DNA of 64,000 nucleotides from Tubiluchus corallicola (Eukaryota > Animalia > Priapulida). The position numbers and the translations under genes are program-made. Within the stretch, counting starts at the first letter, position 1. Every line of letters begins with the position of its first letter. The stretch spans positions 82,435 through 146,434 of the forward strand of contig JAQGDQ010000544.1 in the NCBI GenBank assembly GCA_030141605.1, written 5' to 3'. The notes under the pieces are model-generated. The model saw only the letters and a program-made list of their open reading frames with translations, did not search any database and had not been told where the DNA came from. Of the stretch, positions 50,797 to 64,000 are shown piece by piece.

Positions 50797-53700
50797 GGTT
50801 CGCAAAAGTTTTGCAGGAGCGATATAATATACATTAAAATATGCTTATCTGAACTACAATTGAAATTTAAATGTTCTGATCTCTAAAAGGGAAAATGTAT
50901 TAAATAAGAAATTTTGGGTATATGCTTTGTAATTATTTATTGTATTAATGATTATATATTTCCATTGTTTTTAGTCGTTTATGAGAAAACAGATAGAATA
51001 TCTATACAGTATTTATGGATGGGGAGCAACACCTGATAACAGCGAACAATTAGAAATGTAAGCAAAAAAACTTTACAGCAAATTAATCCTACGTCTGGTT
51101 GTGTTTTGTTTCTCTCGGAAGGCTCGTAGAGAAAACCAGAAAACACGTCGTCAAATTAAACTAGTATATTATACGAGAATTCTATAACACAAAAGTATGA
51201 AGGAACGCGAAATGTTTACAGTAAATGTGATAATCTGGAAACGTGAAAACGAGAAAGCGTATCTGAGAATACGAGGATACAAGAGAATAAACTCTAGCGG
51301 CCAGCTCCGCCTTATATATCAGTGCAAAGGAACAATCTAGAAATAGAAAGTTCTCAAAACTTCTACAAGGTAAGAAGATTGTTCTACTATACTGTAGAAC
51401 ATTCTACAATATTCTATTTAATTCTAGTGGATCTCCACAACAATTTACTTCTAAAGTTCTCTTACCTAGAAGAATTCACACATCCACATAGTTCTGAAAT
51501 TAACGATGCTTAAGCTATAATTTTTTCAGAATTAGGTAATATAAAATGTATCAATGAAATAAATGTGAGGGATAGTATAATTACATAGCACTGGCGCTAG
51601 CGACGAAAACAGACCAGACAGAATACAATAATTGAATTTGCGCAGGAATTAGGGCAAATTACGAAAAGACTGTCACTTTTTCTTTGACTTTCAAAGCTGG
51701 ACGCTAGTTTTGTAAGTTATAAAATGATTCTGGTTCGTTTACGTAATTCAAGCATAGGCCGTCCGTTTGTGCATTTTGCTCCTCTAAAGAATTTATTACG
51801 TATTTTTTATAGATATCTAAAAATAGCAGCTACAGAAACCGCATGCAACGCTGGAATGAGAGACTGTATTGATGGTGCAACTGAGGAATATCATCAGTGG
51901 ATGGAAGATGAGGCTGAAAACCCGTAAGATAAACGAATTAAAATTTTCATGTATAAGCAGAATATTTTTAAATGGAGCTTGCTTGTGCCTGAATGGAAGA
52001 AATTAGATTAAATAAATCTTACATAGCTAGGTTCGTGAAATTTTCAGGATTGGCCTGCTCCAAAACACTTTGCTTGCACTCTGCGATGTTTTTTGAGTAT
52101 GTTGGCACTTAAACCGCGAGTTTGAATGATTGCTCTAAATTGAATTTGTTCACATACCAAACCTGTAGGTTCCCTAGTTAGCTGTGCAGTTTACTCTGTG
52201 AATTAGTATATTATCTAAAGAAGACTTTTACAAGTATGGATATATTATCTAAGGAAGTCTTTTACGAGTATTAGTATATTATCTAAAGAAGTCTTTTACA
52301 AGTCGTCGTCGTCGTCGTCGTCGTCGGCTTTCACTCGTTTCCGAGTATTGTCCTTTCGGTCAAAGTTACTAGCTGTGGTGGGCACGTTGGTGGCTTAACA
52401 GCCCGATCCTTGCTCGAAACATTCTGGTGCATTTGTCACATTGGATGGTGGGAGTTACCTGAGATTGACGGGCCTTCTCTTTCCTTCGTTGACGTTTGGC
52501 TTCAATTGCTGCTCGTCTGGTTGTTTCAAAATGCTCAGTCCCTTCCTGGATGACTCTTCTCCACTTTGTTCGCTGCGGCGCTGTCTGTTCCCAGGTTTCT
52601 GGATCGATCCTTGCTGATTGCAGGGTTTCTTTTAGTTGGTCCTTGTAGCGGCGCCTAGGGCGGCCCAGGGGGCGTTTTCCAGTGCTCAGCCTTTTACAAG
52701 TATTAGTATATTATCCAAGGAAGACTTTAACAAGTATTAGTATATTATCCAAGGAAGACTTCTACCTGTAATAGCATAATTGTCTAAGTCAGTTTTTCCC
52801 GATTAGTACATTGTTTAAAGAAATCTTTACCTGTTGCTGTTAAGGAAAGCTTATAAGGTTGGAATTTCGCTATTTGATTACTTGTATGTACCTATACGGA
52901 GTCTCACTGACTGTTATAATGCCTTAGTTTCTACTAAATACATTAGTACAACCATACCATAATAAATCTTTAAACAAGTTCTGTGTGTATTACAGTACAG
53001 ACATTTTAATTTAAGACTAAACTCGTAAGATATCATTAGCCATTTGTTATGTAATTTACATTGCTTTTGCTAATTATTGCGAGAAGGAATACTACTAATG
53101 CCATGTTACTATTTCCGCTAATTCTGCCTGCACAACTACCCAATTACGCCATGTATAATGATAATATTTGCATTTTAGCATTTCAGTCAACTACAGAGAT
53201 GTAGTTTATTGCACAGCAATTAATGCAGGAGATGCTGATGAATGGGAGTTTGCATGGAAGATGTACAAAGATGAGGATTGGTCCTCTGAGAGATATCGTC
53301 TTCTCCGTGGAATGGGATGCAGTTCAGAGCCATGGATTATTAACAGGTGAGTATGTTAACCAGTGTAGTTTGGATGACATTGCGTGTCATCCAAAAATTA
53401 AATTATTTATCAATATTTTATATACTTTTTTAGATACCTAGAATATACAATGTCGAATAATTATGTATCGCGGCATGAAGCATATCAAATCCTGTATTAT
53501 CTACTTTTTCAGATATCTGGAATATGCAATGTCAGATGATTACGTACCGCAGCATGAAGCATATCGAATCCTGTATTATACAGCTAATAATCATTTGGGT
53601 AGATACCTTGTGTGGGATTTTCTACGTGCAAATTATGACAATATAAAAGACAGGTATGTGGCATATGTAGACAGGTATGTAAAAAAGCCATTAAGTGGAC

Positions 53701-56700: not shown

Positions 56701-58329
56701 ACCGTAAAGGATGCAGTGTGACTTGTCCGCAAGTCCGACGAGGTCGTCTACCGCCCATGCCTCCAAAACCACCAAATAATCCTCCTCCGAATATGTGGGA
56801 AAACAAATTGTCAGCAAACAATCCTAGTTAAAAGCACGAAAGTTTAATATGAAATAAAAATTACAATTAGAAATTAAAGTTACTATTAATGAGAATCCAG
56901 AATAAAGCTGTTGCTTTTGTTTAAATAAGGCAAATGTTGCAGTGCAATACCACATAGAATCACATTCTCCTTTGCGATAAAGCTCAAAACAACTACAGTT
57001 TCATTTCGTAGCCAGCTGTCTGCTATAATTTCTAATATCAACAAAGGTAACCCAAACAAAGGGAATTACAAAAATCGATTACCCATTAGATAATTTAACT
57101 AATTTTTAAAGTCAAGCATTAATCCGCTATACATTTACATAGTCAATTTACAATTACAGACAGAAATATACCACATTAAAACAACATTTCTTCTATACCG
57201 TTTTCGCATTCTGTGACTAGACTAAAAAAACTTTAACTTATATGCAAAGTCAGAATGAATTAAGGTTAAAAGTGACAGACTATTTTAGCAATAAAACACT
57301 AGGATTTACGTTAATTACCAAAACTAGATTTAAAATAAATTGATTAAAATTAATTGGTAGCATAACAATGGCATCTCTGTCAAATCAGTAGCTCTAGAGG
57401 TAAGGTTCCATAAACATGTAAACTTGTGTCGCATGGTTGCAGTGTGCAAAAATGAATAAAAATCCCACTAGTACAACGTCCCATGTTCTGGTGGGGAAGC
57501 GCTGAAGCCCGGCAGGAAGAAGAACCTGATAAAGATAAAGAGTGGTATCAACCTTCTTCACATTAGTTGGCAATTACCGATATTATTAATTAGATTATGA
57601 CTTTGAATGCCAGAATGTTGGTAAATCTTCGCAGTTTACTTCACAACAATTATTACCCTTTGTGGATAATGAGGTGAAGATAGAAAGAAGACGCTGAAAC
57701 ACTACCAGCTAATTTGAAAAATGTTGACACGATAACTATCCCCGTACTGTGGGCATGGATAACAGGTGGCGCTGTTGGATTGTGCGCTACAAAGATGAAA
57801 TCTCGGGCCTCTCTGTCATGTGGGATTAGTAGCTCAGTTGACAGAGCATGGGATAATTCCAGGCCTCGGGTTCAAATCCCGACTCATTTACAAGTTTTTA
57901 GCGTTTCTTTTCCTTCTTGAACTCGGTACCTCTACAACAAGAATAATAATTGTTGTGTAGTAAACCACAATGATTTTCGAACAGCCTGTCATTCACAGTC
58001 ACAATCTAATTAATGAGTGGTATTGCAGCTATGTCATTGTTTTTATTCAGCTATATTCGGGTATAAGATCGCCAAAAGTAAATCAAAGACAATTATTCTT
58101 TACCTTGTAAACCTTTAGCTTTCAACAACATTAAATGATTTCATCAAACATTGTTTTCATACAACAGGTTCAATACTTCCGCTCCACAATTGGAAACCAG
58201 GACATGGTCATGTGGAGGACTGTGGAAGAAGTAATTCGCGCCAACATTGACTACATGGAAAAGAATCAGGAAGACCTAATAGAGTGGCTAGAAGAAGTAA
58301 ATTCAGGAACGCGATCTATATTTAAATAA
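35941..58329 (+). CDS. M1 family zinc aminopeptidase (aminopeptidase N-like), paralog C; complete, 22 exons, about 975 aa
   Basis: Exons: 35941-36154, 36652-36759, 37994-38297, 39772-39927, 40689-40803, 41558-41684, 41803-41957, 43217-43330, 44050-44193, 44426-44491, 44658-44723, 45195-45376, 46593-46684, 48155-48291, 49787-49842, 49950-50097, 50975-51057, 51813-51923, 53179-53346, 53513-53653, 55965-56043, 58168-58329 (TAA); total 2928 nt, frame open. Motifs: TM anchor, [29 protein letters not shown]18-E, ISYAKG. Confidence 0.95.
39098..39174. repeat. (TG)n microsatellite
   Basis: Read directly from the sequence. Confidence 0.95.
42409..43090 (+). repeat. Dispersed ~115-140 bp direct duplication (42409-42546 and 42976-43090) in intron 7 of gene C
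   Basis: Both copies contain GGAATATAAAATTGATACTTAATTGC...ATGGCAAACGTCCAGTAACTTTTGGAATTGGTGG...TAGTGATAGACAAAA; the second lacks an internal ~20 nt. Confidence 0.85.
43232..44199 (+). repeat. Right arm of ~1 kb inverted repeat (gene C exon 8-intron 8-exon 9)
   Basis: See 22512-23546; the 144-nt exon 9 appears identical in B and C. Confidence 0.95.
45509..46217 (+). mobile_element. Non-autonomous Helitron
   Basis: 3' hairpin CGCAAAA-TC-TTTTGCG (46189-46204) followed about 10 nt later by CTAG|T. AT-rich TATATAAGA 5' start, GC-richer body, and internal ATATATCAAACGAAAGGTCTCGA motif. Confidence 0.7.
52202..52765. repeat. 34-bp minisatellite interrupted by an RTE insertion
   Basis: Unit ATTAGTATATTATCTAAAGAAGACTTTTACAAGT on both sides of the insertion. 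Confidence 0.8.
52304..52690 (-). mobile_element. Young 5'-truncated RTE (BovB-like clade) LINE insertion
   Basis: Open frame [20 protein letters not shown]...[23 protein letters not shown] (C2H2 finger), short 3'UTR with ACTCG-GAAA-CGAGT hairpin, (GAC)n tail, and 11-bp TSD CTTTTACAAGT (52293-52303 and 52691-52701). Confidence 0.92.
54891..55322 (+). mobile_element. Solo LTR (432 bp)
   Basis: TGTGGAA...TTTCACA termini, 5-bp TSD CTGTG (54886-54890 and 55323-55327), internal TATATATA near 55071 and AATAAA near 55228. Confidence 0.8.
57570..58028. mobile_element. Foldback element with long imperfect inverted arms enclosing a tRNA-like (SINE head) segment
   Basis: Arms ATTAATTAGATTATGACTTTGAATG...ACAACAATTATTA and TAATAATTGTTGT...CATTCACAGTCACAATCTAATTAAT. 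A box TAGCTCAGTTG (near 57829) and B box GGTTCAAATCC (near 57869). Confidence 0.65.
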
Positions 58330-58454
58330 CAGCCAAAAATTATGATTCTTTTAACATTAATTGTACTTTTGTGAAAAGAAAGTGCCATTGCTCAGAGCAG
58401 AGCATATTTCAAAACAAGGGATGTTTTAAAACCGGTAATCTGTATGAGAAAATT

Positions 58455-59015: not shown

Positions 59016-60015
59016 GAGTTGTGCTGTGTCAGCAGAACGTAACAAAAAGTACTTTGCCAGATTTGTGCTGTGTCAGCAGAACGTAAAAAGTGCTCTGCCA
59101 GAGTTGTGCTGTGTCAGCAGAACGTAAAAAAGTGCTTTTCCAGAGTTGTGCTGTGTCAGCAGAACGTAACAAAAAGAGCTTTACCAGAGTTGTGCTGTGT
59201 CAGCAGAACGTAAAATAGTGCTTTGCCAGAGTTGTGATGTGTCAGCAGAACGCAAAAAGTGCTCTGCCAGAGTTGTGCTGTGTCAGCAGAACGTAAAAAA
59301 GTGCTTTGCCAGAGTTGTGCTGTGTCAGCAGAACGTAAAAAGTGCTTTGCCAGAGTTGTGCTGTGTCAGCAGAACGTAAAAAAGTGCTTTTCCAGAGTTG
59401 TGCTGTGTCAGCAGAACGTAACAAAAAGAGCTTTACCAGAGTTGTGCTGTGTCAGCAGAACGTAAAATAGTGCTTTGCCAGAGTTGTGATGTGTCAGCAG
59501 AACGCAAAAAGTGCTCTGCCAGAGTTGTGCTGTGTCAGCAGAACGTAAAAAAGTGCTCTGCCAGAGTTGTGCTGTGTCAGCAGAACGTAAAATAGTGCTT
59601 TGCCAGAGTTGTGATGTGTCAGCAGAACGCAAAAAGTGCTCTGCCAGAGTTGTGCTGTGTCAGCTGAACGTAAAAAAGTGCTCTGCCAGAGTTGTGCTGT
59701 GTCAGCAGAACGTAAAAAAGTGCTCTGCCAGAGTTGTGCTGTGTCAGCAGAACGTAAAATAGTGCTTTGCCAGAGTTGTGATGTGTCAGCAGAACGCAAA
59801 AAGTGCTCTGCCAGAGTTGTGCTGTGTCAGCAGAACGTAAAAAAGTGCTCTGCCAGAGTTGTGCTGTGTCAGCAGAACGTAAAATAGTGCTTTGCCAGAG
59901 TTGTGATGTGTCAGCAGAACGCAAAAAGTGCTCTGCCAGAGTTGTGCTGTGTCAGCAGAACGTAAAAAAGTGCTTTGCCAGAGTTGTGCTGTGTCAGCAG
60001 AACGTAACAAAAACA
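59016..60015. repeat. ~42-bp satellite array, about 24 copies
   Basis: Unit CCAGAGTTGTGCTGTGTCAGCAGAACGTAAAAAAGTGCTCTG, head-to-tail without spacers. Confidence 0.95.
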
Positions 60016-60219: not shown

Positions 60220-61960
60220 ATGGACGCCAGACTATGACAAACTTCAGTATGATGCACACGCCAGACTATGACTAACTTCAGTATGATGTGCACGCCAGAC
60301 TATGACTAACTTCAGTATGATGTGCACGCCAGACTATGACTAACTTCAGTATGATGCACACGTCAGACTGTGACTAACTTCACTATGATGTGCACGTCTG
60401 ACTATGACTAACTTCAGTATGATGTGCACGCCAGACTACATCTAGCTTCAGTATGATGTGCACGCCAGACTATATCTAACTTCAGCATGATGTGCACGCC
60501 AGACTATAACTAACTTCAGTATGATGTGCACGCCTGACTATAACTAACTTCAGTATGATGTGCACGTCTGAGTATAACTAACTTCAGTATGATGCACATG
60601 CCAGACTATATCTAACTTCAGTATGATGTGCACCCCAGACTATGACTAACTTCAGTATGATGTGCACGCCAGACTATATCTAACTTCAGCATGATGTGCA
60701 CGCCAGACTATAACTAACTTCAGTATGATGTGCACGCCTGACTATAACTAACTTCAGTATGATGTGCACGCCTAACTATATCTAACTTCAGCATGATGTG
60801 CACGCCAGACTATGACTAACTTCAGTATGATGTGCACGTCTGACTATGACTAACTTCAGTATGATGTGCACGCCTGACTTTAACTAACTTCAGTATGATG
60901 TGCACGCCAGACTATATCTAACTTCAGCATGATGTGCACGCCAGACTATAACTAACTTCAGTATGATGTGCACGCCTGACTATATCTAACTTCAGTACGA
61001 TGTGCACGCCTAACTATATCTAACTTCAGTATGATGTGCACGCCTGACTATAACTAACTTCAGTATGATGTGTACGCCTGACTATAACTAACTTCAGTAG
61101 GATGTGCACGCCTGACTATATCTAACTTCAGTACGATGTGCACGCCTAACTATATCTAACTTCAGCATGATGTGCACGCCAGACTATGACTAACTTCAGT
61201 ATGATGTGCACGTCTGACTATGACTAACTTCAGTATGATGTGCACGCCTGACTATAACTAACTTCAGTATGATGTGCACGCCTGACTATATCTAACTTCA
61301 GTACGATGTGCACGCCTAACTATATCTAACTTCAGTATGATGTGCACGCCTAACTATATCTAACTTCAGTATGATGTGCACGCCTGACTATAACTAACTT
61401 CAGTATGATGTGCACGTCTGAGTATATCTAACTTCAGTATGATGTGCACGCCTGACTATATCTAACTTCTGTATGATGTGCACGCCTGATTATATCTAGC
61501 TTCAGTATGATGCACGCGTCAGACTGTGACTAACTCCAGCATGATGTGCACGCCTGACTATGACTAACTTCAGCATGATGTGCACGCCTGACTATGACTA
61601 ACTTCAGTATGATGTGCACGCCAGACTATGACTAACTTCAGTATGATGCACACGTCAGACTGTTACTAACTTCAGTATGATGTGCACGCCTGACTATATC
61701 TAACTTCAGTACGATGTGCACGCCTGATTATAACTAACTTCAGTATGATGTGCACGCCAGACTATGACTAACTTCAGTATGATGTGCACGTCAGACTATA
61801 ACTAACTTCAGTATGATGTCCACGCCTGACTATAACTAACTTCTGTATGAAGTGCACGCCTGACTATAACTAACTTCAGTATGATGTGCACGCCTGACTA
61901 TAACTAACTTCTGTATGAAGTGCACGCCTGACTATAACTAACTTCTGTATGATGCACATG
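60220..61960. repeat. 34-bp satellite array, about 51 copies
   Basis: Unit GATGTGCACGCCAGACTATGACTAACTTCAGTAT, head-to-tail. Confidence 0.95.
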
Positions 61961-62920
61961 GACGCCTAAGACTGTGACGAACTTAAAACTAATGTAATTG
62001 CACATCCTGTGGGGTGCAGATGTAAAAAATGATAATCCACAAAAGGGTAGCTTTTCAAGCTTTTATAATTATGGATTTTATGCTTTTATTGTGAAACTTT
62101 AAGCCTGAGGTGAATCCTCGTACCTGATAAAAAACAGAACCTTTTTCTATGGATTCACATGCTTATGCACAATAATATTTTGTTTTGCATAATAATATTA
62201 CCGTAATTTCAAAATCTATATTTTTTACGAATTACCAAATCCCAGCCAGTAATATCCAGGCTGATATTTACATGAGTAAGCCGAAACCCGTCAATTATAG
62301 GTAGTGTGCTAATGGTCTGATAGCTTTGCGCAATTCTATACGGTTCTTCATTACCAGGCAGATGCGCAGTAATGCATTGAATTGAGATGTAGCCAACAGG
62401 TGAGCAAGGCAGGTAGGACAGCTTACCTGAGTCTCAGAGCTATCCAGAGATGAACGAGACGAACGTTCCTCATTGCTGTACTATAATTTTGGTGTTGCGA
62501 GTTATCTTTGCATTATCATATTTGATTTATCAACAATGGATGCCAGTTTTCTGATTCTTTAGTGAAATTTGGTTTGTAGAACTTCAATAAATTAAAACGT
62601 TGAGGAAATAGCGACGTGATTATTTACGTGATCTAATAAATCTATCCAACTTAGAAAGTGAGTTTCTTGAGGAATTTCACAGACGATTATGATCAGAATT
62701 AAAAATAATTACAATTCGTGCTATTTAACACAATATTATACAGTAATATATAATTGCAAGACATTATTCCTTCTGTTGACTTTACGTTTCCGATAAATAA
62801 ACGTCAATAAAAATGCGTCGTGTAATACTGACGTAATTGCATCTGTATTTATTAAATTGCACAAACATTACCAATTGGCACAAACATTTTAAATTATTAG
62901 TCTAGTTACATAAGTCTTTC

Positions 62921-63298
62921 CAGCAGGTAAGTGAAATGCTAAGTAATATAGATTTGCACGGAAAGATTTTGGGTCATAATTTAACATTGCCTTTTCTTCC
63001 CCTGATTTACGTGGCGTAGTGACGTCATGTAATGGCGCCGTCGGAACAGTATTGCTGGAGATTTAAAATGAAGACAAACAAAAGATCCTTTCAACGCGAA
63101 TACGATATGTGCATAAAATTGCTGTAAAGTAGCATAATTTTTAAGGCGATTTTTCTGAAACCTATTTTAGGTGCCCCTTTTCTTGTCCTTTAAACATGGT
63201 TGTACATAAGCAGTTTTACCGATATTTATCATCCATTTAAATAACTTCTCTCATTTAAATAACGTTTTATTTAATTCTTTTTCAATCTTTTGGTGCAG
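62921..63298 (+). promoter_or_regulatory. Putative 5'UTR intron of the PstS-like gene, containing a CRE palindrome
   Basis: Consensus donor CAG|gtaagt at 62927, acceptor at 63297-63298 and TGACGTCA at 63020-63027. Confidence 0.4.
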
Positions 63299-63392
63299 GC
63301 CTATCAACTAGACCAAATAAAGCTGCTACTCATCAGGGAGGACAAACAGAACAAACAAAGCTAATTAATACACACGTTTTACTCATCAAATA

Positions 63393-63730
63393 ATGACACT
63401 AATTGCAACTATAGCATTTTTACGACTTCTGATCCTATACCTAACATCTCCAGTTCTGGAAACGTGTGCTTACGATGATAGAACTCTAAGAGGAGCAGGG
63501 GCTTCATTTCCTAACAAGGTCTATCAGAGTTGGGTGACCGCATACCAGTCCGAAAGGCAGAAGTGGTTATACTTGACGTCGTCGTATGATGCCATTGGCA
63601 GCGGAAACGGCAGAAAAAGAATTAAAAGTGCGGCAACAAGTGGCATTGATTACGCTGGTAGTGACAGCTTGCTGAAGAAAAGTGATTATGAAGAGAATCC
63701 AGATCTTCAGATGTTTCCAAGTCTTATTGG
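63393..63730 (+). CDS. First coding exon of a secreted or membrane protein with a PstS-like (periplasmic phosphate-binding, type 2 PBP) domain; gene continues beyond the window
   Basis: Hydrophobic signal peptide followed by LRGAGASFPNKVYQSW...YDAIGSGNG...IDYAGSD...LQMFPSLIG, colinear with the PstS N-terminus (GAGATFP...YQGIGSSGG...VDFGASD...FPTVIG). Donor GG|gtaagt at 63731; upstream acceptor with a pyrimidine tract, AG at 63297-63298. Confidence 0.88.
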
Positions 63731-63762
63731 GTAAGTTACTCTGTGCACTTTTTTGGGTAACT

Positions 63763-64000
63763 GTAGTAGTAGTAGTAGTGACAGTGGTAGTGGTAGTGGT
63801 AGTGGTAGTGGTAGTGGAAGTGGTAGTGGTAGCGGTAGTGGAAGTGGAAGTAGTAGCGGTAGTGGTAGTGGTAGTGGTAGTGGTAGTGGTATTGATAGTG
63901 GTAATGGAAGTGGTAGTTGTGGCAGTGGCAGTGGTACTGATAGTGGTAATGGAAGTGGTAGTAGTGGTAGTGGCAGTGGTATTGATAGTGGTAATGGAAG
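63763..64000. repeat. (GGTAGT)n-like hexamer repeat, intronic, runs off the window
   Basis: Read directly; begins about 30 nt after the donor of the PstS-like exon. Confidence 0.9.

Follow-up and report, generated by a model that had tools for sequence, protein, structure and literature searches.

An exon encoding part of a PstS-type domain in the priapulid Tubiluchus corallicola and its relatives among animal receptor-cyclase-like proteins

In Escherichia coli PstS, the residues that we take to be the phosphate ligands are T10, F11, S38 and D56 in the first lobe, together with R135, S139, G140, T141 and D137 in the second. Receptor guanylyl cyclases, by comparison, have peptides as their ligands. 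Almost all PBP_like_2 proteins with a solved structure bind phosphate, as stated in one paper (PMC10443332). Extracellular phosphate sensing in animals is described as 'still incompletely understood', and the mammalian candidates given in the same source (PiT1/PiT2, FGFR1c and CaSR) are either transporters or receptors whose main ligands are different (PMC9338892). Here we analyze a stretch of 64,000 nucleotides from the priapulid Tubiluchus corallicola (contig JAQGDQ010000544.1, positions 82,435 to 146,434; called the window below) containing an exon that is confirmed to code for a hydrophobic leader, followed by the N-terminal third of a PstS-type domain. Judging from its full-length relatives, we hold with moderate confidence that the gene encodes a single-pass cell-surface receptor with the layout of a receptor guanylyl cyclase, binding extracellular inorganic phosphate. 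The parts of the exon are:

63271..63298, forward strand: likely acceptor of the first coding exon (pyrimidine tract and AG), from sequence only
63299..63392 (94 nt), forward strand: likely 5' untranslated part of the exon, without ATG and with an in-frame TAA at 63366-63368
63393..63473, forward strand: ATG and hydrophobic leader, residues 1-27, a predicted signal peptide, from hydropathy and a leader position as in full-length relatives
63474..63730, forward strand: N-terminal part of the PstS-type (PF12849) domain, residues 28-113, from profile and PDB matches, alignment and alleles
63504 (S38), 63507 (F39), 63600 (S70) and 63663 (D91), forward strand: codons of the phosphate-site residues, by alignment to E. 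coli PstS
63731..64000, forward strand: phase-2 GT donor and intron start, with the rest of the gene beyond the window

The open frame runs from 63369 to 63734 on the forward strand, and its first ATG, at 63393, lies downstream of the in-frame TAA. The translation of 113 residues carries GAGASFP, IGSGNG, DYAGSD and MFPSLIG in the order typical of PstS. Leader residues 3-17 reach Kyte-Doolittle values of 2.0-2.4 (11-residue windows), and it is from this hydropathy that the signal peptide is predicted. The exon ends at the donor GG/GTAAGT (63730/63731), which sets an intron phase of 2, and the intron holds a GTAGTG microsatellite at 63763-63997. The acceptor AG at 63297-98 was judged plausible by eye; a simple acceptor pattern matched 9 times in the window, against 6.8 expected by chance, and did not match the candidate site. 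When 16 full-length homologs were compared with the 64-kb window by tblastn, this one exon was found and no others, in agreement with an earlier, sequence-only reading of the stretch, which had placed only the first coding exon here. No reads covered the exon in a run of the same species label that we guessed to be RNA, or in run X5, results that are uninformative on expression.

Profile searches assigned the exon to PstS. The NCBIfam model TIGR00975 matched over profile positions 1-78 with E=1.6e-10, PRK10918 matched with E=9.9e-10, and PF12849 with E=0.015; all three scores fall under the curated whole-protein cut-offs, because the exon is only about one third of the domain. The best PDB sequence matches were solved PstS chains (E. 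coli 1ixh, E=1.7e-5), and of 18 matches, 16 were phosphate-binding proteins and 2 were weak antibody matches. Residues S38, F39, S70 and D91 of the exon align with T10, F11, S38 and D56 of E. coli K-12 PstS. The sequence-only reading had described the leader and the four motifs in order, the donor at 63731, and S/F, S and D as counterparts of Thr10/Phe11, Ser38 and Asp56; each of these was borne out, the frame being open, the TIGR00975 match clear, the phase-2 donor bridged by DNA contigs of two studies, and the residues aligned as proposed.

The exon belongs to a real gene of the host. Runs X1 and X2 come from the same sample, possibly the one from which the window itself was sequenced, and X3 from a second study. 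In both X1 and X2, two haplotype contigs cover 63407-63530, each at about half depth, and the depth of the exon resembles that of its flanks; contigs of X1, X2 and X3 run across the donor and on into the intron and contain no indels, leaving no sign of the chimeric join against which the earlier reading had cautioned. The locus is heterozygous and single-copy. The haplotypes differ at seven coding positions, five of them silent, and within the PstS part all four changes are silent, whereas both non-silent changes (P20S and C25S) are in the leader. Under equal mutation rates these counts (5/7, and 4/4 in the domain) correspond to p=0.008 and 0.002, although both values overstate the silent excess because the changes are mostly transitions. 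The silent allelic changes suggest selection.

The best full-length match of the exon was a protein of the snail Batillaria (E=1.4e-17), in which PF12849 is followed by kinase and cyclase domains. When the Batillaria ectodomain was used as the query, 19 proteins were obtained; 13 are named proteins from molluscs or a priapulid that have all three of these domains and carry automatic names such as 'ANP receptor-like'; annelid members are from Owenia, Paralvinella and Capitella. The exon is 40-59% identical to named molluscs and annelids, and like its relatives it matches PF12849 and not the type-1 ANF_receptor ectodomain (PF01094). We aligned 26 animal-type proteins, which are not independent (several are from abalone). 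In 24 of them one transmembrane helix follows the domain, the other two being models that end inside it, and 21 of these 24 reach a kinase-homology domain (19 by Pfam, 2 as cluster mates). No secreted-only animal form was seen, as all 24 relatives with a complete ectodomain have a transmembrane helix. Named vertebrate, insect, nematode, echinoderm or cnidarian members were absent from the search matches, with the reservation that the profile search scored only 7997 candidates and missed known members.

The phosphate site is conserved across these relatives. All nine site positions are covered by 21 of the 26 rows. Five positions (S38, D56, R135, S139 and G140) do not vary among these rows; T10 and T141 are each S or T in all 21, the F11 position holds F in 20 rows, and the D137 position holds D in 19. 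The second-lobe residues R135, S139 and G140 are kept in 26/26 aligned relatives, with T141 as T or S in every one. An AlphaFold model of the abalone protein P0190 (predicted local-distance difference test, pLDDT, 93.6; 65 rows) gave PstS as its best Foldseek match, with E ~1e-32, a template-modelling (TM) score of 0.85-0.88 depending on the target and a root-mean-square deviation (rmsd) of 2.9 A, and in the model a long helix runs from the PstS domain into the membrane helix. DING proteins were considered as an alternative identity and rejected, since the P0190 fold compared with them at TM 0.63-0.65 and rmsd ~5 A, clearly further away than PstS (0.87 and 2.9 A), and they were absent from the exon's 18 PDB matches. 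The ESM Atlas supplied leads only: the ectodomain gave a best score of 0.89, and a 57-member, mostly mollusc cluster with PF12849 and kinase domains scored 0.84.

The exon boundary is also shared. For the intron test, 148 new representatives of an exhaustive search were used, from which a heuristic picked 86 short animal-type sequences; 71 of these were parsed and 15 were not. Of the parsed short relatives, 44 end right after the conserved Gly and 23 continue with L, S, Y or W, the residues that read-through of GG/GT would yield; the remaining 4 misfit. The position is thus compatible in 67/71 with a phase-2 intron after the FPxxxG motif, as in the window exon. The proposal that this is an intron-containing, host-encoded PstS-type domain is in this way upheld by haplotypes, silent changes, a conserved intron position and, as described below, placement in an animal clade.

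The intracellular part of one relative is that of an intact receptor cyclase. The Owenia protein P0037 aligns with human NPR1 from the kinase-homology domain through the cyclase (E=1.6e-112). Active cyclases carry motifs of the FSDIVGF, VETIGD and CLFGDTVNTASR types, and the catalytic positions, which we take to be two Asp, Glu/Cys for guanine, Asn and Arg, were mapped through NPR1. P0037 keeps all 10 positions checked and is the sole intact cyclase among 17. In the Priapulus model the cyclase is cut short; its first Asp and its Glu are present. Two mollusc pseudo-cyclases, P0007 and P0064, retain both metal-binding Asp and are missing the Asn/Arg pair; Asp kept without Asn/Arg is the pattern of one half of a heterodimeric cyclase.

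Taken from these relatives, the predicted layout of the protein is a signal peptide, a two-lobed PstS-type ectodomain, one transmembrane helix, a kinase-homology domain, a hinge, and a cyclase or pseudo-cyclase, so that the PstS-type domain would stand where receptor guanylyl cyclases usually have an ANF-type ectodomain. Phosphate would close the two lobes, held by S38, F39, S70 and D91 from the window exon and by R, S, G and T from later exons. In other receptor cyclases movement is passed to the intracellular domains of the dimer, and here lobe closure may likewise travel along the juxtamembrane helix and reach the intracellular part of a dimer. An intact cyclase, like that of Owenia, would then produce cyclic GMP (cGMP); with a degenerate one, the condition of most relatives, the protein might control a partner cyclase, or the kinase-like domain might signal. 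For this gene itself, we infer the downstream exons, secretion, phosphate binding, dimerisation and output. The sequence-only reading had offered two fates for the domain, a secreted protein or the ectodomain of a receptor with transmembrane, kinase-like and cyclase domains. The architecture of the closest full-length relatives, where the second-lobe ligands are kept, agrees with the receptor, and the transmembrane helix in each of the 24 complete relatives speaks against the secreted form.

Several observations weigh against a phosphate receptor of this layout. The window covers 113 of ~1000 expected residues, and for this reason the second lobe, transmembrane helix and cyclase of this gene are predicted from relatives. 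Of the 17 cyclase domains, 15 (14 mollusc, 1 Paralvinella) have neither the Asn nor the Arg of the transition-state motif, and only 2 of those 15 degenerate domains keep both metal Asp. A degenerate cyclase in most relatives was not foreseen by the earlier reading, and because of it, cGMP output is not the rule in the family. The kind of cyclase to expect in this gene is ambiguous as well: measured along the tree, Owenia is the row closest to the exon in both trees, at an unresolved node, and the exon's highest BLAST identity (58.5%) is to a degenerate-cyclase protein of the snail Gigantopelta, with Owenia at 51.8%. Three of the 24 membrane-anchored relatives end shortly past the helix (P0190, P0306 and P0022; two abalone proteins and one Nucella model). 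Some members drift at the pocket itself, with E or T at the D56 position in 6 of 43 exon-only relatives, and a conserved pocket alone is no proof of a signalling role. The pattern of cyclase residues suggests that the family likely started as an active cyclase and is now a pseudo-cyclase in most sampled lineages. A more specific version of the receptor reading can be put forward only tentatively: this gene might encode a catalytically active, phosphate-gated guanylyl cyclase, a dedicated receptor converting extracellular inorganic phosphate to cGMP directly. Such a receptor might go back to the protostome ancestor and have stayed intact in some worms, whereas in molluscs it would have become a pseudo-cyclase receptor several times over, there maybe for control of phosphate in shell or body fluid.

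Among other explanations, one that we regard as possible, at low confidence, retains the receptor layout and changes the role of phosphate, which would be a constant structural cofactor or be replaced by a related ligand (a phosphate ester, the end of a polyphosphate, arsenate or a mineral surface), the true signal being something different, for example a peptide. Bacterial PstS has a very high affinity for phosphate, and because of this the site might stay filled in body fluids, as expected of a cofactor. Animal members also have inserts that E. coli PstS does not, and two solved PBP_like_2 proteins are reported to bind arsenate or tungstate as well (PMC10443332). However, the pocket, including the D56 selectivity position, is near-invariant across molluscs and annelids at 30-45% overall identity, and a buried inorganic phosphate site therefore fits better than a larger ligand.

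It is unlikely that the gene encodes a short, membrane-tethered phosphate binder that lacks signalling domains inside the cell and serves as a scavenger, a buffer or a decoy subunit. The idea draws on two abalone RefSeq proteins of 436 and 444 aa ('phosphate-binding protein PstS-like') that end ~30 residues past the helix, and on the position of this gene's downstream exons outside the window. These short abalone forms are, however, 81-82% identical to full-length abalone receptors and group with them, so they seem to be local truncations or partial gene models, and a kinase-homology domain is present in 21/24 of the membrane-anchored relatives.

The origin of the domain was examined with PstS-domain trees rooted on E. 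coli; these were quick trees with no bootstrap, in which the window row covered 84-86 columns and the bacterial rows were search matches only. The LG+C20 tree was built from 55 of 73 rows, after the removal of 18 that were long, partial or redundant, and the approximately unbiased (AU) topology test used 32 rows with the window row omitted. The window exon fell within an animal clade with support from the SH-like approximate likelihood ratio test (SH-aLRT) of 98 (LG+G4, 22 rows) and 100 (LG+C20, 20 rows). The clade is long-stemmed, its named members being molluscs, annelids and a priapulid, and it is nested (support 99 and 98) in a eukaryotic PstS clade that also holds Chromosphaera, Palpitomonas, and proteins fused to 7tm_3 or phosphodiesterase domains. 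The sister of the eukaryotic clade is a bacterial PstS group (support 100), in which 62 of 65 loci are by title Chloroflexota, mostly Anaerolineae or 'Chloroflexia'; at one such locus (L004:4001-8827), the PstS gene stands, by eye, ahead of open reading frames (ORFs) resembling pstC, pstA, pstB and phoU. Anaerolineae PstS and the eukaryotic clade share the signature YAGSDSLL..DLQM and a Cys pair. We read these trees as pointing to an old eukaryotic acquisition of the PstS domain, which was probably reused on the outside of several types of receptor; fusion to a guanylyl cyclase seems typical of the animal clade.

There are hints that the fusion could be older than the animal clade. P0033, read from a single open frame, contains a pair of PstS domains and one helix, and has the beginning of a kinase-homology domain like that of NPR1 (a weak match, E=0.001). 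One tree (LG+C20) grouped it near the animals with a support of 91. It is a possible non-animal PstS receptor cyclase. Another protein of the eukaryotic clade, P0034 of the ichthyosporean Chromosphaera perkinsii (2386 aa), combines four PstS domains with Cys-rich repeats of the ephrin-receptor-like kind and a multi-pass region resembling TRP channels.

Horizontal acquisition, which the sequence-only reading had thought possible, was considered here as direct transfer from bacteria to an early animal lineage. The restriction of named animal members, among the search matches, to molluscs, annelids and a priapulid would suit such a transfer, as would the failure of the Chromosphaera domains to appear as sister of the animals in free trees. 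Nevertheless, we consider it highly improbable, as animal domains are nested among protist domains in a eukaryote-wide clade (SH-aLRT 98-99) and a clade of animals plus Anaerolineae was rejected with the bacterial rows taken from search matches (p-AU 0.011), while one of animals plus Chromosphaera was not (p-AU 0.06). Transfer into animals from another eukaryote could still have taken place. A pseudogene remnant, bacterial contaminant or chimeric join, suggested by the single visible exon among repeats, is equally remote given two half-depth haplotype contigs, flank-like depth, a donor bridged in two studies with no indels, 5/7 silent coding changes (4/4 in the domain), placement in the animal clade, a conserved intron position and animal aminopeptidase neighbours. 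Contamination in particular was rejected on the haplotypes, the donor-bridging contigs and the animal-clade placement, and a subunit of the PstSCAB importer, which is prokaryotic, intron-free and encoded beside pstC/pstA/pstB, was ruled out by the GT donor, the heterozygous alleles, and the aminopeptidase and repeat neighbours.

The remainder of the window contains three M1 aminopeptidase genes, each rich in introns, together with remnants of transposons and satellites, and no pstCAB neighbours occur within it. The genes form one cluster:

4500-9500 (reverse strand), ~23100-31400 (reverse strand) and ~37950-58330 (forward strand): aminopeptidase N-like gene cluster, exons matching PF01433, PF17900 and PF11838

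The second gene has an N-terminal membrane anchor near 31050-31340 and lies head to head with the third. Near-duplicate intronic or exonic blocks with similar ORF translations are found on opposite strands at 23048-23628 and 43201-43706, consistent with a putative inverted duplication of an aminopeptidase gene. The final exon of the third gene ends near 58330, and mostly repeats lie between there and the PstS exon, minisatellites at 59016-60012 (42 bp x 23.7) and 60224-61954 (34 bp x 50.9) occupying most of the gap. An interspersed repeat of very high copy (62868-63194), with a summed depth thousands of times that of the flank, is located ~100 bp 5' of the acceptor. Other elements are a Tc1/mariner-like DDE transposase fragment at 33089-33499 on the reverse strand (PF13358, E=6e-4), a 3' fragment with a terminal C2H2 finger at 52369-52710 on the reverse strand, labelled by eye as resembling a long interspersed nuclear element (LINE), and a tRNA-like sequence at ~57820-57890, seen by eye as the possible head of a short interspersed nuclear element (SINE), where ARAGORN found no tRNA gene.

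No paper on PstS-ectodomain receptor cyclases was found in the full-text literature, a search whose coverage leaves out subscription journals and supplements, which may list such genes under automatic names. Family members are indeed already in public annotation under misleading automatic names; the present analysis adds the member with an intact cyclase, the conserved intron, the evidence of selection from the alleles and a tree-based test of transfer from bacteria. If the proposal is right, these animals would have a purpose-built sensor, its ectodomain made up entirely of a phosphate-binding fold of high specificity that is coupled to a cGMP-type module. Receptor guanylyl cyclases would gain a new class of ectodomain, and many mollusc and annelid 'ANP receptor-like' labels would be corrected. 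The scope is limited to the search matches, which include no vertebrate or model-organism member, and to the first exon of one further member in the window; within it, the family makes an open question on animal phosphate sensing directly testable.

Compared with bacterial PstS (E. coli PDB 1IXH/1A54), the family has a like fold (TM 0.87 for the abalone relative), like phosphate-site residues and an N-terminal leader, but the gene in the window is nuclear and split by an intron, and in its relatives the domain is joined to a transmembrane helix and to signalling domains inside the cell. DING proteins and the human phosphate-binding protein (PDB 2Q9T, 2V3Q) likewise represent a phosphate-binding type-2 fold reported from eukaryotes. 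With receptor guanylyl cyclases (human NPR1/GC-A, PDB 9BCV; GC-C, PDB 8FX4), the relatives share the single helix, the kinase-homology domain, the hinge and the class III cyclase; they differ in having a type-2 PstS ectodomain rather than the type-1 ANF_receptor (PF01094), and in that 15/17 of their cyclases are without key catalytic residues. The protist PstS-domain receptors (PBP_like_2 with 7tm_3, with phosphodiesterase or with kinase; Chromosphaera, Palpitomonas) belong to the same eukaryotic clade and likewise use the domain as the outer part of membrane proteins, but their output domains differ, and the animal domains form a separate, long-stemmed clade with a conserved intron.
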